A stretch of DNA of 64,000 nt. Origin: Bigelowiella natans CCMP2755 (lineage: Eukaryota > Protista > Cercozoa). Every line of letters begins with the position of its first letter. Position 1 is the first letter of the stretch. The notes under the pieces were generated by a model. That model saw nothing but the letters and a program-made list of their open reading frames with translations. It made no database searches and was not told the DNA's origin. The stretch covers positions 1 to 64,000 of the forward strand of contig ADNK01000413.1 of the NCBI GenBank assembly GCA_000320545.1, read 5' to 3'. A program made the position numbers and the translations under genes. Positions 27,724 through 61,398 of the stretch are shown here, one piece after another.

Positions 27724-27833
27724 GAAGATGGCCAGGCACCCATGGCAACTTGAGAGGAAGACAGATGATGAAGAAATGAGATCCGCAGCCCGCCAAAATG
27801 TCATGTACGTTCTGCACTAGGAGCATTGATTTT

Positions 27834-29400
27834 TTGTTTCATTGACTGGTTGCTGTGCATGTCTAGCTAGCTAGCGATGTCAGCAGTGCGTCGCACCAGC
27901 TGCCTGTCTGCCATCACGATGTGCAAATGAACGGATGCAATGAACAAAATCAAACTTGTTGAATGTGGTCATCCTCATGATGTAGCTGTCCACGGTGCAA
28001 TGCAGCAGCTACGATGCGCACAGCGCTGCAATGCATCGTAGCCAATGTTGAATTTGCGTAGCCAGGCGCTTTCCAACACTGTGTGTCTTTGGCAATTTGT
28101 CAATTCGGCAAATTGCAATGCAATCACAGTGCTAGTCACCATGAGTCACAGAGGCCATGTTGTCGCACGCAAGCAAAATCCCTGATGTTGTCAACAATGT
28201 GTTCAAATTGTCTCTGCTGTGCAGCAACATGTCAACGACAATGCAACTTGCACTCACAATGTCAATGACAATGTGACTTGTGTTTGCACGATGTGTGTTT
28301 TGAAATCAATGATTCATCAAAGCACATTTTTGTAGGTGCATGCTGATGATTTTGAACAGATGGTGTTTGTGAGAATCATGCATTGTCAACAGCTGTGTGT
28401 GTCACATTGTTGACAATGTGTGTTCAGAACACACACTGCTGCAATATGACGCAGTGTCGACAGTGCATGTTTCATGCAAACTCACAGTGCACTCACGAAA
28501 ACGACAAAATGTCAAATTGTCATGATGTTGGCACGAGGCGGCGCTGCATGCTAGTCCAGCACATGGAGCATGCTGGCATGGTTTGCACGTGAGTGTCAAA
28601 TGTTGTGAGAAGCCACATGATGCATGTGTTGCTGCGCTAGTCCACGCATTGATGCTCGACTGTGCAGTCACAGCGAACACTTGCTAGCCTTGTGGAACAA
28701 CACGCATGCATGCATGTGACGACGCGAACGCGCAAGCGCATGTGATGCATGCATGCACTGCCCATCGCATCGTCACAATTTGGAGCGACATGCAACAATG
28801 ATGTTGCGTCACTAAATGCAACAACGCATTGATGACTTGATGACTGCCATCATGGACCGCGCAATGCAATGACGAATGACGACACGGAACCAAACAACGA
28901 CTGAAAACATAGCTAAATGAAGAGAAGCACGACATTGTGCTAGATCCGTCTTGCATTGTGCTAGCCATGACACGGTTGCATAGTGAGGCAATCTAGCAAC
29001 ACAGTGTCATTGCAAATTTAATGCGTGCATGCAACGTGTAGTTGTCATAAAACCATAGAGACAATGCCCTCATAGCTACGTTGCACATCAGAATCACGTC
29101 GCTGTTGTTGTCATTCTGCGTAAACCAATATGCACTATGGCACACGAAGCTAAGCTCGTGCTACGCGTATGCAGGGTGGCACTACGAATACGATGATGCT
29201 CAGAGATTACAAGTCAACAATCTAGGACGCGGCTGATGTGACGCTAGGGCGTGTCATATGCAGCGAGGCCACACATACATTACACATACTTATAAGTGAA
29301 CCATTTTTAGATGTATGTGCAACTACAGATGCGTGATAGTATCGTAAAAAATGAGTCATAGTTGATTACAAAAAGAGACAATGCGTATAGTAAATATCTA
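27834..29400. mobile_element. Decayed, TpA-depleted insertion flanked by a 13-bp direct repeat
   Basis: GAGCATTGATTTT at 27821-27833 and 29401-29413 brackets a TG/CA-rich, TA-poor tract with no recognisable coding remnant. Confidence 0.45.
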
Positions 29401-40859: not shown

Positions 40860-41811
40860 AGCGTGTGTTGCGAGGGTGTGCATTAATTGTTGCCATTTGA
40901 TGTGCACGCTGTCATACAAACGTTGCATGGTGCATGGCATCAATCAGCATAGACGACAATAGCGAGAATTGTGCAATGAGCAGAAAGAGAGGTAATTATT
41001 GTGGCACTCAATGATGCTCGCTACGTGCACACGTTCAGCTACGCTAGTACGCCACGCGCACGCGCATGCACATCGATCATGGCGGCAATTCTATTTGTAT
41101 GCGCAGAACGTTAATTGCGTGCGTGCACATGCTAATGTGTACGTGGAATGCACCAACACGACCAATGATGCAATCGATGAATGCCGCGTGCGCGTTGTTG
41201 ACGCCGACAGCAGGGGCGGGCACGCTAGCTAACAAGCACCGGAGCCTTGCAAGAGCTAGACAGCATGACAGCTGCAAGAGAGACGGACACAATGATCAAT
41301 CAAATTGAATTTGTTCAATGACTGGTCATCCTCATGTAGCTGTGCAGCAATGCTAGAATGCAGCGGCTAAGCGATGATGACAGACACAGTGACATCACAC
41401 ATGCAGAACACAAGTCACATCACAAGTGATCAAGTGACATCATGCACATGGCGGAGGAGCACACATTGCATTCACATGTCCATCATTCAGCGCTGTTGAT
41501 GTCAAATCTGTTGGTCTTCGCTGTGATCGAGCGTGTGACATTTCATGCAACAATGTGTTGTGACGACCACAGCTGTGACGATGGGCAACAAGTGGGGCGG
41601 TGCTCAGTGAGCAGTCTAGCAGTGCTGCTCTGGCTAGCTAGCACTGCTGCAGATTGCTAGATTGCCTGTGCGTGGCTGTCACTTGTGGCCGCCAGCTGGA
41701 GCACTGCAGAGCGCCATGCCAGAGCGCATGCATGCTGCAGCTCGCGGACACGTGCATGCGCATGCACTAGCGCTAGCTAGGACAATCAGCCACATGGAAC
41801 GCGCGTGTGCT
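40860..41811. other. TpA-depleted decayed repeat-like DNA flanking the left TIR
   Basis: Few TA outside CTA/TAG; contains a copy of the short dispersed repeat at 41278-41368. Confidence 0.6.
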
Positions 41812-42169
41812 GCAGCAGACTGCTGCACCATGCCCCACATTTGATTTCCCATCTGCCGTCAGTGGGGGAATGACACAAAATTTTCATTTCAAAAATTCAC
41901 CCACTGACGACCCACTGCTGAACTGAATTGCTAGAATGACATGGCAAAATTGCACGAGCATGACACGTCAAGTGTTCTGCATTTGATTTCCCATCAGCAA
42001 TCAGTGGCAAAATGTGCGAAAATGCGCAACATGAAAGCTTCACCCACTGACGACCTGCTGCTGAACTGAATTGCTGTGATGACATGATGAAAATCACAGG
42101 CACATCCCATGTGTTTTGTGAAAACAATCTTTGTTGAAAATGACATGGCAAAATCCACAGCAGAGCATC
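41812..42169 (+). repeat. Left terminal inverted repeat (~358 bp, with two ~143-bp internal subrepeats)
   Basis: Reverse complement of 60271-60627 with about 26 differences by eye. catttgatttcccatc recurs at ~41838 and ~41980. Confidence 0.92.
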
Positions 42170-42209
42170 GTTGAAAACACTGCAAACTTGTTCTCACGCA
42201 AAGTGATGA

Positions 42210-42941
42210 ATGAGAACATTTGAATCAAAAAAAGGAAAACCATCAGATGAATGGCTGACTGAAAAACAATTTGAATCTTTGAAAAACAAAAGATTTTTGC
42301 ATGTGACATCATCAAACATGGACACACACAAAAGAAAACCCACTGAAGAACTTGTTGTCAAACTTGGGCAAGGTGAGGGAACTCAGCCAGCATCAAGATT
42401 GAAAGATTGCATTTCACATCATGGTTGCACTGACTCCAAAAGACCTTGGATGGGTTGCAAATTGCATTGTTTGTTCGCAACAGAAAAGAATGAAAATGTG
42501 GCAGCAACAAACTCCATGGTTCATGAATGTGAACTCAAATCAAAACAGCATGCTGAAAAAAACAACTTGTTGGTAGACAGAGGCGATGAAAGGACATTGA
42601 CAAGATCAAGTGAATTGATTGGAACATTGGATTGCAAACAATTTGAAAAACTCACAGACATTGAGTCAAAACCTGCATGCAATTTGCGAAATGAAAAGCA
42701 GAAATGCATCGTTGAAATGTCAGACCATGCAAACAAAGCAAAGAAAAATGACCATCAAAAACCTGCTACCTTCAAAGTGAAACACAGTGATGGCAGTGCA
42801 GAAGGAACAATTGGAAATGTGTCACCTAATGATGTCAAATCAAAGAATTTTGACAAGTCATTTAGAGAACATTGTGAAAAATCAAATGACAAAGACAACA
42901 TCAAATTAGAAGATGAACATGTGAAACACCTTGGCATTTGA
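42210..42941 (+). pseudogene. Hypermutated viral ORF, possible T5orf172/GIY-YIG-like nuclease domain
   Basis: FL(H=Y)V...VVKLGQG...PASRLKD(C=Y)...RGDE pattern; zero Tyr in 243 aa. Confidence 0.4.
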
Positions 42942-43133
42942 TCATCTACTGAAACATCATGCACAGCCCATTTTGCATCTTCATCAAAATCAAATGGTTT
43001 TTTCATGATTTGCAATTTGACAAACAAATCACCATTTTCTGTCATCAACAACTTGTCAATTTTTTGCAATTTGTTCATCCTTTCTTCTAATTTTTTTGAT
43101 CGTTTCTCTAATTCCATTGTTTTCAACAAACAT

Positions 43134-43337
43134 TCAATGAGATTTGTTGTCATTGATGACAACAACAAAAATCACTTGCTCACCACACTTTTCAGTTGCC
43201 ATCTCGTGTGCTTCTTTGAAAGTTTCACCTGACACAAGGTTCATTCTCATGGAAGCCATGTGTTTTTTGCCATGATGCTTGCCATGAGCTGCTAATGAAT
43301 CTTTCTGTCTTTTGGTTGATTTTTTTGATGCCATCAC
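43134..43337 (-). pseudogene. Small basic His-rich viral hypothetical protein
   Basis: TKRQKDSLAAHGKHHGKKHM...GETFKEAH resembles a small protein seen in aquatic viruses (recall, not searched). Confidence 0.4.
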
Positions 43338-43352
43338 ATCACTGTGGATTTT

Positions 43353-44084
43353 TCATTTTGACAAAGGAACATCGTGTTTGTCAACCATCTTTTTGTCAAT
43401 GTTGCGAGATGGTCCACCAAACAGAACAGAACACAGACGGGCTCTGCTCCAAGACTCGGCACTTTGATTTGGACGACTTCCTCCAGAACAGTGAGCTCCT
43501 TTGCCTTTGTTCACAATTTCTCTTGAAGATTTCAAAGGAACATCCAAAACTTCAGTCACATTGGATGAGGATGCATCACCTTTGAAACACTTGTCTGCTT
43601 TTTGTGTCCATTTGGATTTCTTGCTTTTGAAACTTCTCAACTTTGGTCTGTTTCTGCCATGAAAAATGCTCTCTGTTTGTTTTTCCCCATCTTTTTTGCT
43701 CAACGATTTGGGCACATGCTTCTCATTGATGCTCATCTCACATTTTTTAACAGCATCTTGAACTGCTTTGCTGTTCATCCATTCACATCCGGCATCTGAA
43801 CCCCACGAAAGCCAAGCCACAGCACCTCTTCTCTCATTTCTTTGTGATTGGTCCATCGGTTTGCCATCATTTTTCCATCTGTCGCATCCTGGTTTAGATG
43901 TGCATTTGTGACGAGCGAACCAAGCATTCACAACAATGACATCTTCAACATCCATGGCATCGTCATGTGCTAATTGTTCAGCTCTTTTCATTCCTGTTTC
44001 AATCGTGCCTTTCCAATTCAGCTTCTTTGATTTCAATGCTATTCGGGCTTTCTTCCTCACTTTCATTGGCATTTTCAATTTCAT
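43353..44084 (-). pseudogene. Hypermutated two-domain viral ORF: phage-like RA.QLA/AW..WG.D.G domain followed by a DUF5824-like giant-virus domain
   Basis: (H=Y)VPKSLSKKD, RPKLRSFKSKKS and KGKGA(HC=YY)SGGSRPNQSAESWSRARL; zero Tyr. Confidence 0.6.
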
Positions 44085-44653
44085 TGTTCAATTTGAGAAG
44101 ATTTTTTGCATGCTTTTCACAAAGAATGTGTTTGTCATGACATTTTTTGATCACAAATCCATCACAGAAGGGACAACACATTTTGAGAATGTGTTTGTCA
44201 CAATGTTTTTTGGTCACAAATCCATCACAGAAGGGACAATGTGTTTCATCGTGTTTCGTTTCATCTTCATGACAATCTCTCGCACAAGCATTGATGCAAT
44301 CTCCATCATCTGTTCCATGTTGTTTCATGTCTCTACCTGGAACATTTTCATTGACACATTTTCTTTTCATTTTTTCTTCAGCTGTTAGTTCTGCTTCTTT
44401 CTTTCTTTTCTGATGAACAGATATTTTTTTGGCATCCTTTTCCAATGACTTCAAAAGGTGAACCTTCAACATTTGATTCATTGCAAGTTCTGCCACCAAT
44501 CTTGACTAATCGGTTGGTGTTGATGTTGCATCCATGACCATTTTTCATCTCTTTGTTTTCAATTTTAGCAAAAAGCTTTTGCAAGTTCTTTTTTTGAAGA
44601 GAACTAAACTTTCTAAATTTTTTCAAAAAACTTTTCATTGTGTCATCAGACAC
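43999..44653 (-). pseudogene. Hypermutated, frameshifted viral ORF with two tandem CPFC..H zinc-finger-like repeats
   Basis: CPFCDGFV(T/I)KK..DKHI occurs twice; 63-bp-period direct repeat at 44123-44243. Confidence 0.5.
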
Positions 44654-45778
44654 ATCATCATCACAGATTAGATTTCTTCAAGTGAGAATTGAACGAATGA
44701 AAATTTGAAAAAAAACCACAGTTTTTTTGAGAGTTTTGAAACGACCACAAAATGGTTCAAAAAGAAAAAATCTGCAGCATCACAATGAGCGAAAATGTTG
44801 TTGGCGGAGCAACTCTAAATCCCAAAGGATTGAACAAAATGTTCAAATCCAAAACTTCAGGATGTGTGAAAGAATGCCACAAAAAGAACTCTCAAAAATG
44901 GCTACGAAAGGCAGAATGCAAAGCCTGCAATTGCATGATTGGATTAGCATCACTGTCTCGTCACAAAAGAACTGAAAAAAACACATGCTCAATGGTGATC
45001 CTAATCCATCCGAAGAGCAGAAAAAATTTGTAGATGATCATGAATGTGTCAAGTTCAGGAAATGCAAATTGGTCAAATTGGAAGAAAAATCAGATTTTGT
45101 CATGAAGAAATCAGAAGAGTTAGGAAACAAAACACAATGAATGCAATTTTGTGATCATCATGATTGCCATCATGATCACAAAATGACATCATGAACAAGT
45201 TGAACATTGACAGTTTTTGTTTCATGACCATTGATGTCATCATTGTGATTGTCAATGTCCTCAAATCCATCATGCCAAGATGGTCCACCACATTGTTCTT
45301 TTTCTTCAACATCTGGTTTAGCAAGACCAAGTTCAATCAATGTGTCTCCATTTTGTCCCTTGTGATTGTCAATGTTCTTCACAAATGCTTCTACAGTTTC
45401 ATCATCAACCTTTGGTTTTGTTGGAACTTTTTCATCCTTGTCATCATTGCTCATCACAACATGACTGTGCATTTCACAATGATTTCAAACGAACATTGAT
45501 CAAATGATGCTGTCATGCCATCAACTTTTTTAGGAACCTTTGGAATTTCTTTTTTCTTCTTTTCCTCCTCTTTCATTTTTGGTTTACGAACATCCTCAAA
45601 ATGTTTCTTGTTGTGTTCACTTGTCTTCTCTTTTTTTTCTTGACATCTCTTCTTTTGGTGTGCTGTCATTTTTTCTCTGTTTGGTTTGTGACATGCTTTT
45701 TGTTTTTCCTCATCAGACATTTGTCAAAACAGTTTGGATTTTTGCATTTGAAAAAAATGATCTCAACTCAATTGACAT

Positions 45779-47008: not shown

Positions 47009-47033
47009 AAATGACTCAAAGATGTGAACACAC

Positions 47034-47639
47034 ATGAACACAATGAAACATGTGCCAGATCATGCCAAAGGAAAAATTTGCAAACTGCACATGTCAGGAA
47101 ATGAAGATTCAATTTGTCATGGTTCTGCCATTCAAAGTTCAAGTGTGAGATCATCTGGTCATAGAAAAAATTTGAAATGTTGGAAAAAGGGTACAGGTTC
47201 ATTCATGACATCATTTGAATCATTGGAAAATGAAAATGCAATCACAACCCTTGTTGAAAATTTCCCTTGTGATTCTGAACATGAATTAGAAGCCAGAGAA
47301 CGATTTTGCATGGAAAACAACAAATGCATCAATGAAAATGCACCCACAAGAACTGCAAAAGAATGGAGAGAAACAAACAAAGAACGATCAAAACAATGCA
47401 GACAAGATGACAAAGAACGAATGGCAAAACCAAACAAAAAATGTCATGAAGATGACAAAGAATTGTCAAAGGAAAAAAGAAAAGAACACTTTGCGAATCA
47501 CAGAAAAAAGAACAAAGAAAAATTTGAAGAAAAAATCAAATGTCCCTTCTGTGGTTGTTCTGTTGGAAAATCCAATTTGAAAAGACATCAAAGAACCAAA
47601 AAATGTTCAAAAGCACAAGAAGAATTCAAACAAAAATGA
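47034..47639 (+). pseudogene. GIY-YIG endonuclease (NCLDV/PLV type) with C-terminal zinc finger, hypermutated
   Basis: GKI(C=Y)KL...I(CH=YY)GS...R..GH, LVENFPCDS..EL.ARERF(C=Y) and CPFCGCSVGKSNLKRHQRTKKC. Confidence 0.8.
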
Positions 47640-47665
47640 ATGTTTGAAATGATTGTCGTTTCATT

Positions 47666-48451
47666 GTGATTGTCATCATCCATTGCAATCACAATGTGAC
47701 CAATTCTGAAAAGGGCAAATGCAAAAAATTAGACATGAAACCAACAATGACAACCAAAAAAAAACAGATCCACAACAATTGCAACTTGACACCTTCGTTT
47801 CCAAACAGATGCTCATTCACAGCTCCAACAGGAAGTGGAAAATCAGTGGTGATGGCAAATTTGTCAACTCGTAAAAGACATTCAAGAAACTTCTTTGATG
47901 TTGTTTTGTTTCACTCTCCAAACGTTCACTTTGAAGACGAACGTGCAGAAACAAAGGCAAAAAATGAAAAAGCAGAAATGAAATTTGAAGAAAAGTTCAA
48001 AGAGAAAGAGTTTGGAGCCATGGTTCATGAAGTGATGCGAGAACAAAAAGAACTAAAAGACAAAAAGAAACACATGAAAAAAACATTGACAATCATTGAT
48101 GATTTCGCTTCAGATGAAAAAGTGATGAAAAGTGAAACATTGAAAGATTTGTTCTTTGCTGGTGGAAAATGTGGTGCATGTGTTTGGATCACCAGTCAGT
48201 GTTGCAAAATTGTTTCTCCTGATGTTCGCACAAATGCCGAACATTTGATTGTTTTTAGCAGACAACCTTCAACTGAATTGAAAAAGATGGCTGAAGAAAT
48301 GTCAACAGGCAAATGCACTGAGAAAAAAATTGTGGAAACACTTGATGAAATGTCTTCTGTGGATCATTCATTTCCACATTGCAATCGCAAGCAACCAATG
48401 AATGAAAGGTGCATGATCAATTTTCAAAGTTTCATGAACATCCAAACATGA
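47666..48451 (+). pseudogene. A32/FtsK-HerA-type viral genome-packaging ATPase, hypermutated
   Basis: Walker A APTGSGKS; Walker B TIIDD; LFFAGGK...WITSQ..KIVSPDVRTN motif region; zero Tyr in 261 aa. Confidence 0.85.
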
Positions 48452-48707
48452 TCAATGTGGATGAACTTTTGCCAGAATCACATTCAAAAAAATCAGGAAC
48501 AAATCATCATCATTTGACAGTCGTCCAAAAAAAAACAGCAAATCCTTTTTCACATTCAAAAAAATCAGCTGTCATGGTCCCAGCTGTCAAACCTGCTGGT
48601 TTTTTTGCGAGAGAATTTGTGAGAAAAGAAGTGCCTGTGAGCATCAAACGAACATTTGAAAGGTGTCAAATGTCAATTAATTGTCATCTAAACGTTGACA
48701 ATGACAC

Positions 48708-49271
48708 ATGGGAAATGACAATTCTTCACCACCAAAACCAAAACCAATCCACATTCCAAAGCCACATTTTCCAAAACCAAAACCAATGCATGTTCCAAGA
48801 ATTCCCACAGAAAAAGCAACTAAGCCTGTGAACAAAGGAACAAAAAAAGGAGCAAATCATCTTGAAGACAAACTGACACATCCAGTTGCTGCTGCAAATG
48901 AAGCTGAAGGAGCATTGAGTGAATTGGATTCTGTGTCTCACGGCAGTCTTGGTGTTGTGCATCAGGGATCTCAAGTTGTGTTTCCACAATTTGGATTGGC
49001 CGTCACATTGGCCACTGTAGCAGATGAAATGGCTCACAATGATGGTGAGTCATCAAAAAAAACATCAAAAAACATCTCATCAAATCAGGCTACAGGAGGT
49101 GTTTGTGGTGATTGTCAAAGTGTCAGAACCATTGAAAAATCAGAGCTTGTGACTGAAATGGAAAACAAATTCAATGCAGATTCACACGACTCACCAGATG
49201 TTGATGGAGCAATTCCAGTTTCTGTGGAAGGCAAAATTTCTGTTGATGATGCGACCAGAAAACTCAGATGA
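48708..49271 (+). pseudogene. Hypermutated viral ORF, unknown function (MGN start, PK repeats)
   Basis: 187-aa ORF preceded by TCTA at -21; zero Tyr. Confidence 0.5.
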
Positions 49272-49683
49272 ATCACTTTTTCTCATCTTCTTTGATTTCA
49301 GGACTTGGCAGAAATGTTCCAAGTGTCAGAATGACAACGTTTGAAAAAGCATTTCTTTCTGCTACATTTTTTGCTGTTGCAACTTGAAGCACACTGAATG
49401 TTGAAACACTGAACATTGCACCAGATTTCAGGAAAAACTCTGAAGCCCTTTTGTCAGAAGTTGAACAACAAGACTGGTGAGCATCAATGTGTTTTTCATC
49501 CTCTGATTCTTTTCTGTGTGGCATCTCTTCCATCATTCTGTCTTTGCATTCTTCAGAATCATTCATGTCTGCAACTTTTTGTTGTTTTTCATCTGCTTTG
49601 TGTTCGATGGATTGTGGAACAATCATTGCAAACAGTCACAAACAAAATGCCACAATGATTTTTTTTCTGTTCTTGTGATGACA

Positions 49684-50578
49684 ATGGGATCATTTGATGA
49701 GATGAAAGATGGATTCAAAAAGGCTGTTAATGATGTGCAAAAATCATCAGGGCATGCAACAAAGCAAATCAAAAAAGACTTCACAAAAGCAGGAGATGCT
49801 GTCAAAGATGTGTCTGTCATGGCAGGTGATGAAATCAAAAAAGGAGCCCATGAAGTTGGAGATCAACTGAAAAAACAAGAAGTCCAACAGGCACTCGCAG
49901 GGACTGGAATTGCTTTAGCTAATGTTGCTACTGGAGGGGCATTTGCTCCAGAATTAATGGCAGGTGGATTAGCAATTCAAGGTGCCATTGAGTCAGCACA
50001 TTCAAAATCTTTACCTCATGACACTGTGCTGCAGGCAGGAACCGCATGTGCCACTGGTGAATTAGATTTTAACAAAAGAGGACCAGGTGTTGGTTCATTT
50101 AGCGAAGGTATTTCTAATTTGAGAGAAGAAGGTGTGAAACGATTTGATGGTGTTGAAGATGAATTATCAGATGAAGCTATGAAAAGACATGATGATGTAA
50201 AAGGCAAAGCATCAGCAAGATTAGGATTTGATCCAACACAAATGCAATCTACAGATGAAGCTATGGATTCATTAAAAGCACAAATTGACAAAAATAGAAA
50301 TATTAGAGCAACAGCTAATGGATTTAAGAAGTGGAAAAGCATTAGAAAATTTAACAAACAAAGCAAAAAGTGAATTAAAAAAAGAAGTAAGTAGTCAAGG
50401 CAATAAAATACTAAATGATGTTTTAGGTAAAGTGTCTCAAAAGAAAAGCAAAGTGAAAAAAGCCATGAAAAAAGTTAAGAAGAAGATGAAATCTTCTAAA
50501 GGCAAAATGGCTGATGTCATTAAAAAGGTGAAACAAAATCAACAGAGATACAGAATGTCAAGTGGCATTGTGAATTAA
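49684..50578 (+). pseudogene. Viral ORF with Gly/Ala hydrophobic segment and basic C-terminus, probably frameshifted near 50290-50370
   Basis: MGSFDEMKDGFKK...ALAGTGIALANVATGGAF; the overlapping ORF 50285-50578 continues with K-rich sequence. Confidence 0.45.
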
Positions 50579-50646
50579 AAAAAAAACACATCATGAAAAA
50601 ATTACATTCGTTTTGATACAATTTTTTTCATCTACACATTGTTAAC

Positions 50647-52311
50647 ATGGATGCAATTAGTGAAACTACCGATGTTAGTAGATTTCCAGAAATCGACTAC
50701 AGTTTACCCCCTATGGATAAAATTTTCATTGATTCAGTCTCTCATTTTAGAGAAGAGATGAAAAATAGTAACAATGCTAAAAAAGCGAATACCAAAATGA
50801 GATTTTTTGTTCCAGCTCAACAAAGAGCAGTAGACCCATCTGAATTACATTTTCAATTAAATGTTGCTGCCAGAACAGCTGGAGATGCTGATTTACCAGC
50901 GGTTGACCAATTAAGATTAAGACTTGCTGAAGGTGGAGTTCATTCTCTCTTTAGAGAGATGATCATTAGAGATGGTAGAGGTAACATCATTGAAAAAATT
51001 AACAACTATGACCTTGTTACTAAAATTTTACAAGATACTTTGTTGACTAAAGAAGTTAAAAATAATTTGTTAAATGTGGAAGGTGTTCATGATGACCAAG
51101 GATTGTTCAACACAGTTCATAGCAAATTTGATATTACTGGTAACACCTTAGAATTAAAAGCACCTGTGGCTCAGGTCGTAGCTGATACTCTTCCAGCAGG
51201 TGCGGCTGATTTTCCCGCAGCCAATGCTGCTCCTGTTGCTGCTGTGACCACTCCCGCTTCACCATCAAGAGTACTTGGTGTAGGAACTCAATTCTTAACT
51301 GAACTAAGACCAGGTTCTGTTGTTAAATTCAATGGAAACAGTTACACAGTTGCCCATGTTGTATCTGACACAGAATTTGTATCTGCTACTAACATTGCTG
51401 CTGATGTTGCTGCTGCTAACATTGTTGCTGGTAGAGATTTTGTTGAAGGATTACTTGAAACAGAAAGTCGTTACAAAAAATTCCATCACGATGGACTTTT
51501 TACAGCAGATGGAGCTGTTCATTGCTTTCAGCCATGCTGCTCTGGGTTTTCATCTCAAAACAAATACCTTCATCTTGATCATTGTGGTGGGTTAGAATTT
51601 GAATTTACTTTAGATAGCAATGCCATGATTTTCGATGATGCTAATGCAGCAGGTAATGCCAATATTTTCATTAAACAAGGATATGTTCATCACACTGCTC
51701 TTGAATTTTCACCAGTTGTTGAAGCTGCTCTTGCTAAAGCATATGTGAGAGGTTTATCTATGAGTTTCCCTGTGTACCATGTAGTTAGTGGAACACAAAA
51801 TGCTTCTACCTCTGTTTCTCAGGAATATCAAGAAAGTTTAGCAATTCTTGAAATGGTTAAAATTGTTAGTAGACCAACTGGGTTTGATGCAAATGCTGGA
51901 GCATCATTTTTCTTTGAAGATCTAACCAGTGCTAAAAGAATTTACTGGGAGATCAACAAACAAAGATTTACTGAGTGTGGCAATGATGACATTTTACCTC
52001 AAGTTGTTTTTGTGAACAACAGAATCGGTAAAAATCTATTAGGAGATTACAAACATGCTACAATTTCTTATGGAGAATTCAAAGAAGCAGGTAAATCTGC
52101 TTTAATTTTCAATGCGCAAAACTACAAAGAAGGTAATTACACAGGAGTTAACACCAACCGAGCAACTATGAGACTTAAAATTGAAGGAGGAGATGGTGTT
52201 GGTTCTTTACAACCTGGTATTGCTAATCAAGGTAGACAAATCGATGTGTTAATGATGCACGAGCAATACATTATGTTAAAAGATGGAGAAAGTGTGACAG
52301 TTCGTAGCTAA
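50647..52311 (+). CDS. Major capsid protein (PLV double jelly-roll type) with internal insertion
   Basis: MRFFVP...VDPSELHFQLNV and GGVHSLFREMIIRDGRGNIIEKINNYDLV match the N-terminal PLV MCP pattern; 554 aa; lies directly upstream of the penton-like gene. Confidence 0.78.
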   Translation: MDAISETTDVSRFPEIDYSLPPMDKIFIDSVSHFREEMKNSNNAKKANTKMRFFVPAQQRAVDPSELHFQLNVAARTAGDADLPAVDQLRLRLAEGGVHSLFREMIIRDGRGNIIEKINNYDLVTKILQDTLLTKEVKNNLLNVEGVHDDQGLFNTVHSKFDITGNTLELKAPVAQVVADTLPAGAADFPAANAAPVAAVTTPASPSRVLGVGTQFLTELRPGSVVKFNGNSYTVAHVVSDTEFVSATNIAADVAAANIVAGRDFVEGLLETESRYKKFHHDGLFTADGAVHCFQPCCSGFSSQNKYLHLDHCGGLEFEFTLDSNAMIFDDANAAGNANIFIKQGYVHHTALEFSPVVEAALAKAYVRGLSMSFPVYHVVSGTQNASTSVSQEYQESLAILEMVKIVSRPTGFDANAGASFFFEDLTSAKRIYWEINKQRFTECGNDDILPQVVFVNNRIGKNLLGDYKHATISYGEFKEAGKSALIFNAQNYKEGNYTGVNTNRATMRLKIEGGDGVGSLQPGIANQGRQIDVLMMHEQYIMLKDGESVTVRS

Positions 52312-52428
52312 TTTCATTTTTCTATCAATCATTCCAATCCTTTGGGATTTGGAGTTGCTTCGCCAACATTTGTTGTTAAATTCCACCAAAATTTATATCA
52401 TGAAAATTTATTTCTAATATAAATTAAT

Positions 52429-53145
52429 ATGAAACAACACAAAATTTATTTTAATAGCAAAGATAGAATTACTGGAACAACCAATAATTTAAATTATCAA
52501 TTAAATAGTGTAATTGATAATGTATCTTCTATTTCTATTACAAGAGCAAGATTTCCAATTACTTGTTACAATGTGTCAGCTAAAAATAACATTTTAGAAA
52601 TTGAGAATAGTTCTGGAAACAAAACAAGTATGGAATTAACAAAACAAAATTATGGTGCTACTGAATTAGCAACAGAATTACAAACTAAACTTTCAACTAA
52701 TGCCTCAACAGTAGGAACTTTTACTCCTGTGCACAATGCTAAAACAGGAAAATTTAGCACAGGTTGTAGTAATAGTTTCAAAATAATTAAAAACGAATGC
52801 TCTAAATTTTTAGGTTATAATGACACTACACCTCTTTCTACATTGCATGTAGCAGATAATATGAGTAATCTATCACCAAAACCTGTTTACATTCAAACTG
52901 ATTTACAACTGGATACAGAATTAGCAGGTCAATTGTCAAGTGTTGTGCATGAAGTCTCTGGCGATGTGTCTTTTGGTAGTATCTCATATGATAATGAGAA
53001 ACCAAGTGAAAGGATTGAATTAATGAAAAAAAAGAATGTAAGCAACTTAAAATTTACACTTGTAGATGGTAATGGAGATGAAATAGAAAATAATGGTACA
53101 GATCATTCTATGATGGTATCTTTGTTTTGTCAGACTAAGGAATAA
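52429..53145 (+). CDS. Minor capsid (penton-like) protein
   Basis: IYFNSKDRITGT..L...IDNVSSISI..ARFP...YNV...NN, NY...ELA.ELQ and LKFTLVDGNG..IENNG.D.S match PLV/virophage penton patterns. Confidence 0.75.
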   Translation: MKQHKIYFNSKDRITGTTNNLNYQLNSVIDNVSSISITRARFPITCYNVSAKNNILEIENSSGNKTSMELTKQNYGATELATELQTKLSTNASTVGTFTPVHNAKTGKFSTGCSNSFKIIKNECSKFLGYNDTTPLSTLHVADNMSNLSPKPVYIQTDLQLDTELAGQLSSVVHEVSGDVSFGSISYDNEKPSERIELMKKKNVSNLKFTLVDGNGDEIENNGTDHSMMVSLFCQTKE

Positions 53146-53175
53146 GAAAAAAATATCTAATCATTATTAATAAAA

Positions 53176-54738
53176 ATGAGTGTTAGTATTACAGGTGAAA
53201 ACATCCCTAACCCTAATGTATCTGGTGGAACAAACAATGATAACAATTCTTCAGCAGGAGGCATAGTTGGGATTACAAGCAATTCGAATGACATTAATTT
53301 TGATGAAGGAGTTTCTGTGAATGGCATAAAATTTCAAAACACAGGAAACCAAAACGGACTTTTTATGGGTGTTGATTTGTCTGGTAATTCGTCTATGGAA
53401 ATGGTCTCTCCAACAACCTACATTGATTTTGTACATCAATTAGGTTCTGATTATACGAATCGTGTTCTGTCAAAAAATGACGGTATTCACTTCACAGGGG
53501 ATTTACACATGGGCATTATTAGACCTAATTATGTATCTTCAAGTACAATAACATCTACGAATGGAACTTTTAATGCTATTAATTTAGACGGTGTCCCTTT
53601 GAATCCAAGAAATTGTTTAGTTCACGGGATTACATCTGACATTGTAAGTGGAAACATGAAATTTACTATGAATTCTAATTTTCAAGAAAAATTAACAACA
53701 TTAGGCGATTATGATCTGTCAAACAAAATAACAAATGATGCTACAAATGGTTTGATTGTTAATGCTAATAATGTTAATGATGCAAGTGTTTTATCAACCA
53801 AAGTATCAAAATTTTCTTCATCTGTATCAGGAAAAGAACCAAAAATATTAAGTATTGACAATGATTTACAATTAGCTAATCATTCAGGTACACCTCAAAT
53901 GCGATTCAAAGATAACAGTGGCAATGTTCAAATTTCATGTAATGAATTAGAGTTAACAGATAATGTAGGGGAGGTAAAATTAAAGATCTTAGAAAAAATA
54001 AATAATGTAGAAACAAAAACAACAACAACAGAAAACAAACTTAATCCAATTACTTCATCTAACAACGAACATCAATTTTCAAGTTCCATTTTTGTAAATG
54101 GTTTGAGAAGCACAACACAACCTCATATCGATGGTATTCATTTAGGAAAAGATGTTCATAATGGTAGTAGCATTGAATTCGTTAGTCCAACATGTTACAT
54201 TGATTTCGTTCATAACAATTCAGGGACAGATTATGCGAATCGTATTTTATCCAATAATGATGGAATTCACATCACAGGGGATTTGCATGTTTTCAATACA
54301 AAAATTGCTGGAGATGTTACATTTCAAGGTTCATTGTTATCGAACACATTGACAGATTTAACAAATGGATTAAATGCAATTGAAGCATTAGCTATGAGCA
54401 ATAGCAACAATGTTCAAAATGGATTTAGCAATGTAAATGTCCCTATTGTAAGAGTCATTAATAATTCATCTACTGTTGTTTTCTTTGAAAGTGGTAATCA
54501 GCCACCTTTTTACAATCCTCGTGTAGAAAATGGTAAATCTACCGTTTTAGAACATGCTTCAAATGTTGTGTCATTAAATGTTCGTTCATCATCTCCATCA
54601 TGTAATTCATTTAATCTCACAGCAGACAAAGCAGTTAGCATAAATTCTGGTTCTGATCCTAATATGCCAACTGGGGCACAACATAGAATCGAATTGAATG
54701 GTCTGAATTTTGTAACCTTTACAATTTTCAATCCATAA
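53176..54738 (+). CDS. Asn/Ser/Gly-rich putative virion fibre protein with a duplicated ~50-aa module
   Basis: SSMEMVSPTTYIDFVH...DYTNRVLSKNDGIHFTGDLH is repeated as SSIEFVSPTCYIDFVH...DYANRILSNNDGIHITGDLH. Confidence 0.6.
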   Translation: MSVSITGENIPNPNVSGGTNNDNNSSAGGIVGITSNSNDINFDEGVSVNGIKFQNTGNQNGLFMGVDLSGNSSMEMVSPTTYIDFVHQLGSDYTNRVLSKNDGIHFTGDLHMGIIRPNYVSSSTITSTNGTFNAINLDGVPLNPRNCLVHGITSDIVSGNMKFTMNSNFQEKLTTLGDYDLSNKITNDATNGLIVNANNVNDASVLSTKVSKFSSSVSGKEPKILSIDNDLQLANHSGTPQMRFKDNSGNVQISCNELELTDNVGEVKLKILEKINNVETKTTTTENKLNPITSSNNEHQFSSSIFVNGLRSTTQPHIDGIHLGKDVHNGSSIEFVSPTCYIDFVHNNSGTDYANRILSNNDGIHITGDLHVFNTKIAGDVTFQGSLLSNTLTDLTNGLNAIEALAMSNSNNVQNGFSNVNVPIVRVINNSSTVVFFESGNQPPFYNPRVENGKSTVLEHASNVVSLNVRSSSPSCNSFNLTADKAVSINSGSDPNMPTGAQHRIELNGLNFVTFTIFNP

Positions 54739-54782
54739 TTCGTTTAGAATGAAAAAAAAATACATAGTCATATTGTAATCAT

Positions 54783-55163
54783 GTGGATAATGTTAGTAAT
54801 GTTAGAGAAACTTTAAAAGGTTATAGAGTTACACAATTGAAAGAATTGTGTCGTGAAGTAGGAACATCTCAATGTGCCAGAAACAAAAAAACTTTAATGG
54901 ATAGATTGACACCTATAGTTCTAAAAAGTGCTGGATATGAAGTCGTTTCTATTGAAAAAGAAGAAGAGGTAAAAAAACCAGCTAAAAAAATCAAAAGAGT
55001 TCCAGTTAAAAATAGTGTTAAAAAGAAAGAAGAGGAAAAAGTAGAGGAAGAAAAAATTAGTCTTGAATCAAAAGAAGATAGTAATGATGAAAAAGTAAGC
55101 ATAGAAATAGAAGAAGATGGTAATGATGAAAGTTCAGTAACAGAATCAGATGTAGAAAATTAA
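54783..55163 (+). CDS. Small SAP-like motif protein with acidic tail
   Basis: YRVTQLKELCREVG...NKKTLMDRL resembles SAP/HeH DNA-binding motifs. Confidence 0.45.
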   Translation: MDNVSNVRETLKGYRVTQLKELCREVGTSQCARNKKTLMDRLTPIVLKSAGYEVVSIEKEEEVKKPAKKIKRVPVKNSVKKKEEEKVEEEKISLESKEDSNDEKVSIEIEEDGNDESSVTESDVEN

Positions 55164-55355
55164 CTCTGTTCATGTAATGGGAGGAACAATAATTGTTTTA
55201 TTAACTTTAGGTGCATGTGTGATGATTGGACACATATTTGGTAGAGTGTCGGCATCAATTACTGATTTAGACCCTACTAACGATTATTTGATTGTGAATT
55301 AAAAAATTATTTTTTTGAAATTTTGTTTATAAAAATTATCTAAATCTTTATAACT

Positions 55356-55964
55356 ATGAGTTCTTCTACCGCACATTTCCGTAATTCAGTTTTAATTGAT
55401 GGATTACTTACCGGTCCTACCATTGTTAGAATAGACACCGAAAAAACTGCTGTTCTCAGCAGTCTTAATCAACAAATTTCTGACTTTCAAACAGCAGAAA
55501 CAAACAATGCTCAAGCAAGAGCAGATTTGCAAAATCAAATTGATGATGCTAATGCTTCTATGACTCAGGCTATGGGTGATTTAACCCAACTTGTTAATGA
55601 CAACAAAGCAGACATTGAAGGTAAATTAGCAACAGAAACTAATGAAAGACTTTCATTAGCAAGTGAAGTAAGCAACAGAAATGCATTTGTAGATGGTGAA
55701 ATTACCAGACTTGACCAACAACATGCTGATGATGATGCTAGACTTGCAGCTGTTGAAGCAACACAAGCTACTTTTAATTCAGATGTGGAATCTAAAATTC
55801 AAGAGAGAATTGATGCTCACAATGCTGATCTTGATAATACCCTTCCTCGTTTAGCAAAATTAGAAGAGTGTTTAGAAACAGATGAATCTGATCCTGCTAA
55901 TCCAGTCGTAAGAATTAAAGGAGGTGTTAAATTTGAAGTAAGTGGTGATTTCGTCCAAGGTTAG
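55356..55964 (+). CDS. Coiled-coil putative virion fibre protein
   Basis: Heptad-like Q/D/A-rich helix; C-terminus VRIKGGVKFEVSGDFVQG; TCTA at -17. Confidence 0.55.
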   Translation: MSSSTAHFRNSVLIDGLLTGPTIVRIDTEKTAVLSSLNQQISDFQTAETNNAQARADLQNQIDDANASMTQAMGDLTQLVNDNKADIEGKLATETNERLSLASEVSNRNAFVDGEITRLDQQHADDDARLAAVEATQATFNSDVESKIQERIDAHNADLDNTLPRLAKLEECLETDESDPANPVVRIKGGVKFEVSGDFVQG

Positions 55965-56011
55965 ATTGCAAATGTGATTTAAACAACATATAAAAAATCT
56001 AACAATTAATA

Positions 56012-56258
56012 ATGATGTCTAATATTAAAAGGTGGTGGTGCTTTTTTCAAAGAAACACCTGCAATAGCAAACAATGTAGTAGGTCAAACAATAGATACTA
56101 TTAATCAACAATTAAACGATAATAATACACAAAACACAGAAAATAAATTACAACTTGATTTTTCAAAAGAAGTTTTTATAATAGACAAAGAAAACAAAAC
56201 TATTACGATAAATCCTGAATGTAAACTCATTGTGCCTAATGATTTAATTCAAGGATAG
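56012..56258 (+). pseudogene. Short paralog of the preceding ORF, frameshifted after the start (not in the ORF track)
   Basis: The frame reads KGGGAFFKETP...TITINPECKLIVPNDLIQG*, ending like ...SGDFVQG*. The ATG is out of frame across an A-run. Confidence 0.45.
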
Positions 56259-56297
56259 TTCGTTTAAAAATAGTATAGTTTTTTGTAGTCATAAGTA

Positions 56298-56490
56298 ATG
56301 ACTATAAGAAAAGTGTATTTTTATGGATTAACATGTTTAAATACAAGAGAAACATATATAGGTTCTACTACTATGGATCCAAAATTAAGATTACAAATGC
56401 ATGTCGCTAATTTTAGAGCACATGAAAAAGGTTTTGGTAATTTTTGCTCTTCGTATCAAATTTTAAAAAGAGATAATTATATGTTTAAAG
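56298..56490 (+). pseudogene. N-terminal half of a GIY-YIG endonuclease, truncated
   Basis: VYFYGL...TYIGSTT...RLQMH...CSSYQIL, followed by an abrupt switch to helicase sequence. Confidence 0.7.
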
Positions 56491-57744
56491 TTAAACAACG
56501 AATGTAAATACATAAGAAAATTTGATATTTCACCACATGATGTTATATGCTTTGATGAGGTTTATATATATTCACTACATCAACTATCAAAAATTAAGTT
56601 ATTTATGGATAAGCATGTTGATAAAAAATTTATTGCTACTGGTGATTTAGCTCAATTGGATCCCATTGAAAACGAATATCTGTTTAACAACATCAAAGAC
56701 CTTGATGTTAGAACAACTGAAGCTATGAATGATATGTTCCCTAATCAAATCACTCTTAAAATCTGTAAGAGAGTAAAAACAGACGAGGAAAGAAATACTC
56801 TTGCACGATTAAAACAAGAAATATTTGATGTAAAAACTAAACCATTTGATGTGCTAAAAAAATATTTTAAAGTTGTTGAAAGTATGGATAAAGTAAAGAC
56901 TCTTAACAATATTACCTTCTACAACTTTAGATCCCGTTCAGTAGGTAAGTATATCCACGGTCTACAATAGAAACCGAGAAAAAAAGTTTATGTAGATGGT
57001 ATTTGCTACTATGCTGGTATGGAGATTGTGTGTAAAAAATATAATAAGAAACCAAAACTATATGTGAACTATGCTTATGAAATTGTTAAAGTAAGTAAAA
57101 AAGAATTTGTAATACAGGATGTATGTGATATGGAAGAAATAAGAATTCCTATAGAATTAATTAGTAAGCATTTTAGATTATCATATGCCTCTACCTGTCA
57201 TAGTTTCCAAGGATTATCAGTAGATGGCCCTATCACCGTATTCGATACTAACACCTGTAGAATTAATCGCAAGTGGCTCTGGACTGCTATAACTCGTTCA
57301 ACTGACCTATCACAGATACAAATATATCAGCACAGCGATAAAGAATGCTACAGATTAAAAGAAAGTATGATTTCTCAAAAACTACGAATGAAAGTATCTT
57401 CATATGAATCTCAGGACAAAAGAGCTGGTAGAACTTGGAAAGATAAAGAACATATTGATGAGGAATGGATAAAAAGAACTGTTAATAATCATCCACAATG
57501 TCCTGTGTGTAGATGTGGATTTACTGCTGATAATGTTTCTGTGGATAGAATTGATAATGCTCAACCTCATCTGTGGAATAATTGTAGATTGACTTGTGTG
57601 GAATGTAATCTTAGTAGAAATAATCAACAGACTTACCCAGCATTTGGTGAGTACACCCCTCAGGATGTTGAGTTTGAAGATGGCTTTGAGGATCAATGGG
57701 TGAAACCTGGGTACGAAAACACCATCACTGGGCTGGAGCTTTGA
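56491..57744 (+). pseudogene. C-terminal fragment of an SF1 helicase plus HNH-like domain (PLV replication protein), with in-frame stop at 56968-56970
   Basis: VICFDEVY (Walker B), ATGDLAQLDPI, YASTCHSFQG, WTAITRS, then CPVC...VDRIDNAQPH..NNCRLTCVECN. Walker A is absent. Confidence 0.78.
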
Positions 57745-57991
57745 GGCATCGTGTGCCCCGAAAATTTGACATTTAATGTCTTTGCCACATCAGCCACACG
57801 TGTCAGTTCTTCACCGGAGACTCTCCCCGCTGCTGGGCATTCCGGGATGAAAATGGGAGTCCCTAATCTTCGGACACTAACGGACACTAACGGGCAATAC
57901 CGGTAATACTCCCGGTAATGCTCTTTCCGGGGATTCGCCGCAACGAGAGTCTCCCGTGAAGATCTTCACTCCAGACTCGAAATCAGACTCG

Positions 57992-60183
57992 ATGAAGCGT
58001 AGTGGATCTTTTGACGAGAAAAGGAAGGTAGATGAAAGAATCCCTAGCAGGAGAAGTTCGAAAGCACAGGTACTTATCCTACGAGGCTTGCGTTCGGGAG
58101 CTTAAGCTTTGATGTGTTCTCAGCGTTCTGAGGTATGGGGAAATCAGATGGACTCTATTAGCAAACAAATCGAGAAATTGAGGGATGAAAGAAAAGCTTT
58201 GAGCATCGCTTGGGCAACGGAGAAGAATAAGGAGAAAGAAGAGGCGCTCAAGGGTGCTATTGACAAATTGGACGAGGAAATTCAGGCGAAGGAGGCAGAA
58301 CTGAAGGAAACGATAAAGAAATTCGAGGAGGCAACCCAAGGTTATGAATTCTGTTAACATCTGAGGAAACAATCGGTGTGCTGAGATATTTTTGCGTGTG
58401 TGTTCAGCCATGGAAATTGAGGAAAGCGGCAGGGGGGGTGATGCCCAATGTCTCTGTGCAAATAATCCATTGTTCTAATTTTATTGTGATTTGATTTCAG
58501 GGGAGAAACGCAAAAGCATATCGGATTACGAACGAGGAAGCGAAACAAAAGGTGACTAGACTCATCCTCTCTAAGTATCTGTTTGATAGTCCCGCTTTAC
58601 GTGGATACACAGGCAAACGATTCAAGATTGACACGGATGCCGAAGAATTTTTCCAAGCTTTGAGAGACACTCCGTTCACAAAAGGGACTGCAATGCAGCT
58701 GGTGCGCATAACGAAGAACATCCTCGTACCTGGGCATCGTGCTAGTTGGATTCGGGGGTCCAGGCACCCTGTTACTCTTTTCTACCGCAAGGCATTTTCA
58801 GAAGCAGTACGCAGATTTCGAGAATGTTATCAACTTCGCCGTGAGGGAAAGTCGAGCATTGATTGCTGTATACTCTCTGGGCAAAGTGGTATAGCCAAGA
58901 GTGTGGCCTTTTTGCTAACGTACATCAAGGTGGCGCTTAAAAATGACGAGAAGGTTGCGTTCTATTCCGTGCCAGAGGGTATCCTTTACTGCATCTACGT
59001 CGAGAACGGTACAGTCAAGTGTTCAACATCTGTAGTTACCCCCTTAACATTCCACAGTGAAGAATGGAAAAGCTTTGACTCTACTTCGACACACCTTGTC
59101 GTCGATCCCGAGAACGGATTCGGGCACCTAAATGTCAACATCACAAAAGCCTTTGTGGTAGTGGCAAGCTCGCCCAATAAGGAGTGGAAGCAATTCGAGA
59201 AACTCCTTAAGGCCGGAACGAAGAAGCGGGATCTCACCTTGTATGCGGATGTCATCCAAGAAGATGAATTCAACGATATTTCTGCGGGAAACAATGAGAG
59301 TGGCGGGGCGGATGGAAACTGTACTGTCAAGGGCTTAAAAAGCCGATCCGAGATAGCCGGGGGGATGTTGCGGCACATTGTGGACGAGCAAAAGTTCAAG
59401 AAGTTTCAAGACTCCCAAGACCACATGTTGCGAATGTTTCAGGGCAAGATTGGCGAAAACGTGGAGATGATACAACCTAGGGATGTCGCTTTACCAAGTT
59501 CCGTGTTCTGCATCCGCCCCATTCTTAAAGACGGTTCGCACACTAGTTCGGATTTTGTCCTGGATTTCCTGAGCCCTTATGTAGAATCCAGAGTGGTAGG
59601 GGCGCTTGCCGAGGAACAGTCTAAGCAGAGTGAAAGTATGTCTGGTTTAGAGGCAGAAAGAAGGTGGTTTCACCTCATAAAGAATGGGGGAAATTTTGAA
59701 GGCCGACATGTCGGCTCACATTTGCCAGAAGAATTGAAAGGCAAGACTATCACTGTCTCATTTAGTCGACACAAACGAGTGATTCACCATCGCGAAAATA
59801 GTAAGGAAGAAAAGAATAAGTGCTTGGAGGAAATCCGCGAATTGAAGGATTCGAGCACGCTGGTCATTTGCCCTCCGAACTACACAAACATAGATGGTGC
59901 TTCAAGTGCTGAGGTGCTGCATCAGATGGCTAAAGGAAATGTTCACGACTTTAAAGTCAAACACAAAGACGAGGTTCTTGTGGATACGAAAGTTGTCACG
60001 ATTTACTACTACACTTTGGAGAAGCATTATCATACATTCCGTGTGAATTTCGTTTACAAAGACGTGTCAAAATCTGACCAGGAAGCGTGGAAGAAAACCT
60101 GGCACAAGCACTTGAGGTTCGTAGTCGTAAAACTCGATCCGGTAAGATTTTGGGATAAATTAAAGAAAGCACTTGGAAAATGA
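57992..60183 (+). CDS. Crinkler/RHS-like effector gene (N-terminal coiled coil, P-loop NTPase, REase-like C-terminus), spliced, inside the TIRs
   Basis: ILSGQSGIAKSVAFLLTY, LVVDP, VVVASSP, GGMLRH and PPNYTNIDG...HQM...H motifs; GT-AG intron 58070-58123 joins in phase. The splice path into 58501 is not fully resolved. Confidence 0.6.
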
Positions 60184-60270: not shown

Positions 60271-60627
60271 GATGCTCTGCTGTGGAATTTGCTATGTCAT
60301 TTTTAACAAAGATTGTTTTCACAAAACACATGGGATGTGCCCGTGATTTTCATCATGTCATTCTAGCAATTCAGTTCAGTAGTAGGTCGTCAGTAGGCAA
60401 ATTTTCATGTTGCGCATTTTCGCAATTTTTGCTACTGATTGCTGATGGGAAATCAAATGTGGGTCACTTGACATGTCATGCTCGTGCAATTTTGCCATGT
60501 CATTCTAGCAATTCAGTTCAGCAGTAGGTCGTCAGTAGGTGAATTTTTGAAATGAAAATTTTGTGTCATTCCCCCACTGACGGCAGATGGGAAATCAAAT
60601 GTGGGGCATGGTGTAGTAGTCTGCTGC
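60271..60627 (-). repeat. Right terminal inverted repeat
   Basis: Reverse complement of 41812-42169; retains more TpA than the left copy. Confidence 0.92.
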
Positions 60628-61070
60628 GCACACGATGCATGACGTGAGCAGCTTGTCTAGCACATGGCCACGGCGACCAGGCTAGCTAGCTAGGCCTGCG
60701 CATGTGCTGCGCATGCGCAGCGCATGCACGCCGCACGCAGCGTAGCCGCCATGCTGCGCACGCTAGCACACGTGCTACGCACTGCTGCTCCAGCTGGCCA
60801 GTGCTGTTGGACTGCACATGTGCATTGCTAGATTGTGACGGACCATTGAAAAAAGTGACAGATCATTTCATTGCATCCGTCTCGCTACCATCTCGCACTG
60901 ATGAAACTTCATTGCTGCTAGCTCTAGTTAGCTAGGGCTAGCTAGTCAGCAGCACGTGCAGCAGCTGCTGTTGCGATCGTGCACATCTTGCGAGAGCGCA
61001 GCTCATTCTCATTGGTGCAACAAACTAGCAATCAAAAACATGTGTCTGCAACATGCTGCATTGCTTTTGC
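60628..61070. other. TpA-depleted, CTAG-rich flank to the right of the element
   Basis: gctagctagctag runs; virtually all TA in CTA/TAG context. Confidence 0.6.
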
Positions 61071-61398
61071 TTCCCTGATTTCACCAAAGAAACAACCAAT
61101 CAGATGCCATGTTAGTACTGTTTTAAATTATATTCACAATTGACAACCCCACCCGCAGGGCTTGTCATTTTCTATCAGAATGTATCTTGTATGAAGCTCC
61201 ATTTTAGAGAAGCATTACTCGGCATGAAAAGGAAAATGATGATTTAAACGCTTCGATGGATTCAGGATTCAGACATACAAGGACACCCTTGACAGTTTGT
61301 GTACTCCGGCTGAGAAACGAAAGTTTCTTCTGCCTTCAGTTGATGCTCATCATAAGGTTTTCAGAGAATACTGGATCCTACAAAGTTCTCGTGCGCGT

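Follow-up and report, generated by a model that had tools for sequence, protein, structure and literature searches.

Stepwise TpA hypermutation along a rearranged Polinton-like provirus of Bigelowiella natans appears to follow position

What decides how heavily a host hypermutator edits each part of a virus inserted in its genome? Hypermutation of viral inserts from TpA to CpA or TpG is already published for Bigelowiella natans (Mettrop et al., bioRxiv 10.64898/2026.01.13.699255), where the responsible mutator was first reported in 2026. We addressed this question in a stretch of 64,000 nucleotides from B. natans CCMP2755 (contig ADNK01000413.1, positions 1 to 64,000; hereafter the window), in which positions 41,812-60,627 are an integrated Polinton-like provirus of 18.8 kb, delimited by terminal inverted repeats (TIRs) of 358 bp that are 92-95% complementary (Table 1). 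An earlier note on this DNA had proposed a polar gradient of editing along the provirus. The polarity was borne out, but the profile proved to be a staircase, made of a step, a plateau and a lower level, and not a smooth gradient. Editing level followed neither gene identity nor copy number, and most of the editing appears to postdate an inversion within the element and to depend on position at this locus.

The TpA observed/expected ratio (o/e), taken per kilobase, was 0.05-0.13 at 42-50 kb, 0.56-0.77 at 50-56 kb and 0.86-0.87 at 56-58 kb. In the saturated part, a ratio of ~0.07 was accompanied by an excess of CA and TG, and the signature, TpA to CpA/TpG, was present on both strands. Editing amounted to ~94% at 41.1-49.9 kb and remained flat up to a step, placed by its change-point support interval at 49,890-49,915, within an open reading frame (ORF, 49687-50373). 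Saturation did run from the left TIR onwards, as previously claimed, and its edge lay at this step instead of at ~49.7 kb. The profile was fitted to 2406 TA, CA and TG sites in contexts other than the slow CTA/TAG, with a TA fraction of 0.007 to the left of the step and 0.33 to its right; we calculated by hand from these fractions that the cumulative dose differs ~tenfold across the step. The Akaike information criterion (AIC) ranked a step plus slope first (1594), followed by a ramp plus slope (1595), an exponential ramp (1598), a logistic curve (1602), a step alone (1608) and, far behind, a straight line (1722); the two lowest values do not distinguish a sharp step from a ramp of a few hundred bases. 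The plateau at 50.3-56 kb, edited at about 30-37%, was trendless (Spearman p=0.93), and the level at 56-57.7 kb was 0-11%.

Composition-corrected estimates, which take 56-57.7 kb as zero baseline, put editing at 0.93 in the saturated block, 0.45 at 49.9-50.6 kb, 0.24 and 0.28 in the two halves of the plateau and ~0 at 56-57.7 kb. With a baseline allowing 10% editing at 56-57.7 kb, they became 0.94, 0.50, 0.31, 0.34 and ~0.1, respectively. This left a short, marginally supported shoulder at 49.9-50.6 kb, with an editing level of about 0.45-0.5. An estimator relying on codon position gave 0.94 for the saturated part, 0.37 for the plateau and -0.23 for 56-57.7 kb; because host genes also gave 0.34 (and the cargo gene near the right end of the provirus 0.31), it served as a supporting measure only.

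Editing that spread from the left flank and decayed smoothly with distance, as leakage of repeat-induced point mutation (RIP) does in fungi, would account for the overall left-to-right monotonic order, for the advantage of step plus slope over step alone (p 4e-5) and for the outward fading of the left flank over ~40.9-41.1 kb. Yet the straight line was the worst model, 50.3-56 kb showed no trend, and editing was no weaker immediately left of the step. Indeed, slow-context sites retained TA at 36/308 left of 47 kb and at 10/185 at 47-49.9 kb, a slight fall towards the step (p=0.04), whereas decay from the left end would have produced a rise. The flat block and the flat plateau largely refute smooth decay, which we consider improbable. 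The spread from flanking chromatin or repeats put forward in the earlier note thus survives in part: a position-dependent process acting in cis is supported by the inversion and the TIR asymmetry (see below), and gradual, distance-decaying spread is unsupported, since saturation stays level until it ends abruptly.

The locus offers a natural experiment, in that halves of genes changed zones through an inversion. The window was matched in two separate places by full-length relatives of the helicase protein (1205-1319 residues), with residues 1-73 at 44,638-44,444 (minus strand) and residues from ~870 at 56,494 onward (plus strand), and the ~800 replicase codons upstream of 56,494 are missing from this copy. 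Contigs in 3/3 public DNA runs joined 56,493 to 44,446 on opposite strands, and other contigs extended the helicase upstream of 56,494; as this joint vanished at 99% likeness, it belongs to another copy. Compared with the ancestral order, the block 44,447-56,493 is turned around; this inversion splits the replicase gene and likely also a GIY-YIG gene. The halves of the replicase were edited in opposite ways, with 4 TA against 30 CA+TG in the N-terminal part and 124 against 168 in the C-terminal part (p 3e-4). For GIY-YIG, TA:CA+TG was 25:20 in the right (N-terminal) half and 2:9 in the left one (p 0.04, counting the gene only; we discarded a p of 5e-6 whose count included DNA past the gene end). 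Since the left halves are saturated and the right ones nearly unedited, editing followed present position, and most of it probably came after the inversion. Along the element, editing changed monotonically when genes were taken in their present order (Spearman 0.88, p 9e-11), and the ancestral order gave no such relation (-0.04, p 0.83). Editing had tracked place, not sequence or copy number.

Tyrosine positions anchored on homologues were now His or Cys at 9/24 sites in the putative major capsid protein (MCP), one of the nine being called from paralogue discordance alone, at no fewer than 4/11 (at least) in the putative penton, at 2/4 in the fibre-like gene and at 2/18 in the helicase. The plateau genes differed from the helicase with p=0.06, or p=0.017 if the helicase is counted as 2/23. 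Together with the TpA ratios, these counts agree with two observations of the earlier note, partial editing across MCP, penton and fibre and faint editing at 56-57.7 kb. Among the motifs that it had found suspicious, the His of ELHFQL is an edit, relatives having F, F, Y and Y there; PVHNAKTGKF is likely an edit, a paralogue differing at this place; and GIHF is not to be counted as one, as GIH is also present in relatives P0015 and P0016. A gradient inside the MCP (8/14 against 1/10, p 0.03) was rejected since the downstream penton and fibre were equally edited; TAT versus TAC codon use in the MCP (7/12 against 2/12, p 0.09) may contribute to its appearance. Separately, CG occasionally stood where relatives suggest TA (Tyr to Arg), at 41966, at 58837 and in the paralogous penton P0002, possibly as double or second-order edits.

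Other copies of the family are known from proteins and from short contigs of public DNA runs. Contigs of these runs matched the window exactly in both the saturated and the partial parts at single-copy depth (one of them covers 41324-41855), and exact contigs on either side of the 49.9-kb step had equal single-copy depth. Each copy was edited independently: other copies differed in the saturated part by CA/TG doublets, as expected if each resolved the same TA on its own, and two MCP paralogues agreed at 13/22 edited sites, close to the 50% expected. In two other copies the MCP is saturated, at 22/22 sites each versus 9/24 here (p 3e-6), without any Tyr in 779 and 542 residues, and one X6 contig retained TA at 3 listed sites of the replicase N-part. 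With the same MCP saturated elsewhere and TA kept in the X6 contig, sequence identity does not set the level. Targeting by homology, whether through copy number or pairing as in RIP or through guide RNAs recognising particular viral genes, would fit the TIRs and the flanking repeat, which are high-copy and edited. However, summed contig depth, a rough guide only to copy number, peaked at 56.4-58.4 kb (897-1336 versus ~90-360 elsewhere in the body, run X1), precisely where editing was lowest; the same genes were saturated in one copy and not in another; and, according to the preprint's main text (bioRxiv 10.64898/2026.01.13.699255), the largest target is single-copy. We hold such targeting to be very improbable.

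The earlier note had named a sharp step at an assembly join or haplotype switch as what would speak against it: the step was indeed sharp, and no join was found. That the assembly fused two paralogous copies at this point would be in keeping with the several similar copies of the family and with the absence, among the contigs listed, of any bridging 49,689-50,218. But the window sequence contains no N, and contigs at 99% likeness covered 30/30 bins in three of four runs and 28 in the fourth, with neither joints nor gaps. These four runs showed no TpA-type difference and one C>T single-nucleotide polymorphism in one run, contigs and the 99% filter being such as to hide rare or short variants. 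Nor was there a joint or a loose end at 44,446/7 at 99%, the ancestral joint being that of another copy. We give a chimera very little credence. A contig joint from 49,773 to 41,295 was judged by eye to be a chance match to the flank repeat.

Alternatively, the 49.9-kb step might mark the breakpoint of a crossover or conversion in which two versions of this one inverted insertion were joined, the first from a saturated lineage and the second briefly edited, with the protection of the cargo gene still being positional. A breakpoint would leave a sharp step with both sides flat, as observed; the ~six TIR differences unrelated to editing would fit it too; and as hypermutation was found in only 11/15 lines (main text of bioRxiv 10.64898/2026.01.13.699255), lineages can differ. 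It requires, however, that both versions carried the inversion, a condition to which the recombination between edited and unedited copies suggested in the earlier note is now confined. Furthermore, neither side has an identical twin, the exact contigs being at single-copy depth; the marginally supported shoulder at 49.9-50.6 kb (0.45, confidence interval 0.33-0.62, versus 0.24, 0.16-0.31) also speaks against a crossover; and the lower level beyond 56 kb is left unexplained. We therefore regard a crossover as unlikely, though by no means negligible.

TpA depletion reappeared in the right TIR and flank, as had been claimed, with the right TIR less edited than the left. Across 85 aligned TA/CA/TG sites, the two TIRs had the same CA or TG at 71, shared TA at 1 and were discordant at 2; 11 sites were edited only in the left TIR and 0 only in the right one (p 0.001). 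If ~16 right-TIR sites had been edited independently, two or fewer discordant sites would have p=0.002, and with 10 sites p=0.055. The depletion of the right TIR was thus likely inherited or homogenised, not spread in place, a conclusion that depends on the assumed native TA level. This suggests that the TIRs were edited before this copy inserted, in which case edited ends would not stop the family from spreading. Each TIR also contains a degenerate tandem unit of ~142 bp (41838-42086; 60354-60608), and, judging from their summed depth, the genome may contain dozens of related TIRs.

The repeat flanking the provirus recurs at 27.8-29.0 and 34.7-35.0 kb, and six/six pairs beat at least 99/100 shuffles in one orientation. 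Since its motif faces inward at either end of the provirus, a single such repeat was probably the insertion site; the provirus ends showed no clear target-site duplication. The copy at 27.8-29.0 kb is a near-saturated island with no viral genes, which begins 83 bp past a host stop codon and fades on its right side over ~300 bp. More generally, edited tracts stop near gene 3' ends (27,723, the B9 gene, the cargo gene and the SERBP1-like gene). The copy at 34700-34970 is less edited and ends in a GCTA tandem run.

In the cargo gene, TpA o/e was 0.52-0.60, similar to host coding DNA, which agrees with the earlier statement that editing is not evident there. Fourteen Tyr were kept, and at most 2-3 sites looked edited. 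Differences between the window and the cargo contig L001 were symmetric (7 against 6), indicating no net editing; cargo editing is faint at most. The gene, intron-bearing and lying within the TIRs, has a distant host paralogue, and in at least one other copy (P0014) a cargo-type gene adjoins the helicase end; its relatives gave only sub-threshold STAND NTPase matches in Pfam. A Crinkler-like layout is possible, going by its motifs. The relatives P0018 (0/14 sites) and P0014 (1/13 sites) are unedited; P0020, P0023 and P0025 look edited, on very few sites. In one RNA run, 57.1-58.4 and 59.8-60.4 kb were covered by reads, and 30 reads had a poly(A) loose end after 60,326, inside the right TIR, so that cargo-side transcripts appear to end within this TIR; six read ends lay at 56,029 and five at 50,597, none of these reads being assignable to this copy. 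A block to editing near a transcribed host-like gene, as the earlier note had envisaged, fits the GT-AG introns, the RNA reads with their poly(A) end and the unedited cargo of other copies.

Our preferred reading, to which we assign a probability of about 0.55, is that the published host TpA hypermutator acted by position and that the levels reflect bounded, chromatin-like editing domains in cis. A strongly marked domain reaching from the left flanking repeat to 49.9 kb would license the mutator, a ~tenfold weaker zone would extend from there to ~56 kb, and a protected zone would surround the transcribed cargo gene. A chromatin mark may be the guide, the flank repeat or the TIR the seed and transcription the shield; the chemistry would be adenine deamination, the preprint proposing an ADAT-like DNA adenine deaminase and naming ADAT2 as a candidate (bioRxiv 10.64898/2026.01.13.699255).

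Several points weigh against this reading. A tenfold drop within ~200 bp in the middle of an ORF is also expected from a crossover, and no boundary element was identified at the step. The second step is poorly localised (51,730-56,110), and the codon-position estimator alone is no proof of plateau editing, given its value in host genes. The saturated block shows no decay from its supposed seed. The ~six TIR differences unrelated to TpA editing fit age or exchange with another copy. Transcription is no absolute shield, because the relatives P0023 and P0025, from transcript collections, look edited at their 1-2 informative sites. The RNA reads are not assignable to this copy.

More tentatively still, Bigelowiella might lay down chromatin domains with sharp borders inside which a DNA adenine deaminase is licensed to act, a RIP-in-reverse defence guided by position and not by homology, seeded at a dispersed repeat and excluded by transcription units, such that a captured spliced host gene would shield the replication end of the virus; we find this broader proposal possible but doubtful. 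In any case, chromatin marks, small RNAs and mutation rates can be measured directly at this locus, which has a step confined to 25 bp, an end that is protected and a repeat that is a candidate seed.

Table 1. Features of the provirus and its surroundings (window coordinates; fast contexts are those other than CTA/TAG)
Feature	Position	Strand	Remarks
Separate edited island	27806..29019		flank-repeat family; between 3' ends of two host ORFs
Left flank	41141..41811		dispersed host repeat; no TpA left in fast contexts
Left TIR	41812..42169	+	TpA o/e 0.04
Block A	42170..44446		saturated; ORF 42210-42941 (+), DUF5824 ORF 43356-44087 (-)
Likely GIY-YIG C-terminal half	44378..44446	-	saturated; assigned by frame continuity
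Replicase/SF1 helicase start, 65 codons	44447..44638	-	saturated; left inversion breakpoint; tblastn P0008 residues 9-73 E 3e-11, P0009 residues 1-68 E 6e-14
Small Cys-rich ORF	44740..45033	+	divergent from replicase start; Zn-ribbon-like by eye; no match in a Pfam search; arrangement as in PMC5499653
Second GIY-YIG-like ORF	47028..47639	+	no Tyr remaining
Packaging ATPase-like ORF	47648..48451	+	PHROG 2666 E 5e-9; 0 Tyr in 267 residues
ORF containing editing step	49687..50373		step at 49890..49915
Putative MCP, 554 residues	50647..52311	+	partly edited, 9/24 Tyr sites
Putative minor capsid (penton)	52429..53145	+	weak DUF5901 match; partly edited
Fibre-like gene	53176..54738	+	partly edited
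GIY-YIG gene, N-terminal half	56298..56493	+	Pfam GIY-YIG E 8e-5; 25 TA in 196 nt; nearly unedited; right inversion breakpoint
Replicase C-terminal part	56494..57744	+	SF1 helicase + endonuclease VII/HNH-like domain; faintly edited
Cargo gene	58124..60183	+	GT-AG introns; host-like base composition; P-loop NTPase-like family
Right TIR	60271..60627	-	TpA o/e 0.40; most CA/TG states common to left TIR
Right flank	60628..61115		same repeat family, motif inverted; no fast-context TpA

The proteins nearest to those of the window are Bigna1 gene models (83-95%). For the MCP, the nearest relatives were two B. natans gene models (84%, 83%) and, at 64-67%, four environmental proteins. MCP, penton and fibre are putative labels, based on size, gene order and weak matches: the size and order of the putative MCP and the minor capsid that follows fit a double jelly-roll MCP arrangement, the predicted MCP model having a confidence score (pLDDT) of 39, and the putative MCP had no sequence match in Pfam, PHROG or PDB. 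Scans of viral contigs for related DNA, a metagenome scan with the MCP and an Rfam search across 27-62 kb returned nothing. The relatives of the helicase protein had no polymerase match in Pfam, the middle of the gene being missing from this copy. An in-frame TAG stop at 56968-56970 in the helicase fragment is not of the TpA-editing type, and relatives are open there. A near-identical piece at another locus starts at 56,160 (loose end in 4/4 runs), near the second editing step. The virus body has almost no CTAG (1 in 6 kb, 49950-56000), but both flanks are enriched in it (11 and 12). Further upstream, a host ORF of 1242 residues (23995-27723) carries a long tandem array with a 15-nt unit (26.6-27.7 kb), rich in Lys/Glu/Ala.

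Sequence context was graded. Survival at 41812-49900 was 29/199 for CTAA/TTAG and 13/116 for CTAC/GTAG, CTAT/ATAG not being spared (2/174), and in the plateau ATA/TAT contexts were lost first. ADAR favours a 3' G; unlike ADAR, the slowest common contexts here are CTAA/TTAG and CTAC/GTAG. The change of A to G after T is otherwise like that of the TadA/ADAT and ADAR adenosine deaminases considered in the preprint's discussion.

The process itself is already known: Mettrop et al. (bioRxiv 10.64898/2026.01.13.699255) describe the same both-strand TpA to CpA/TpG signature in the same host and, in addition, TpA-depleted clusters and targets related to transposons. Unlike our analysis, their main text contains neither a step within an element nor an inversion test nor a hierarchy of flanking bases; the terms gradient, spread, boundar-, flank, Polinton and inverted repeat are absent from that main text, and the supplementary tables of mutation positions could bear on the pattern. 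Our literature searches found no other paper on the spatial pattern of editing in B. natans, nor, in the literature searched, an in-element step, an inversion test, inherited TIR edits or an order of contexts in print. The inversion and the TIR asymmetry are new here.

With respect to the virus, its genes are in keeping with PLV-Bnat, a family of Polinton-like viruses described in PMC5499653. Shared features are TIRs, an ATPase, an MCP followed by a minor capsid gene (both labels putative here), a stand-alone GIY-YIG gene, a divergent small Cys-rich gene and a large SF1 helicase protein with a C-terminal HNH-like domain, here in two pieces and with an endonuclease VII match. The PLV-Bnat protein is reported to have 1,000-1,400 residues, with a C-terminal SF1 helicase, an HNH domain and an inactivated pPolB domain (Krupovic et al. 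2016, PMC5499653). Unlike PLV-Bnat as described there, this copy has a 12-kb inversion, lacks the ~800 replicase codons and carries an intron-bearing cargo gene; its gene order also appears different from that of BnTV26.

With respect to editing, a close parallel is fungal RIP with its leakage (as treated in PMC2973834), which likewise introduces transitions at a specific dinucleotide into foreign or repeated DNA and shows position effects close to repeats. The direction is opposite, RIP converting CpA to TpA, so that TpA is lost here and not gained. In contrast to RIP, the level at this locus does not depend on copy number, the region of highest summed depth, itself a rough guide, being the least edited. 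And whereas RIP leakage decays over ~1 kb, the provirus shows a step between flat levels.

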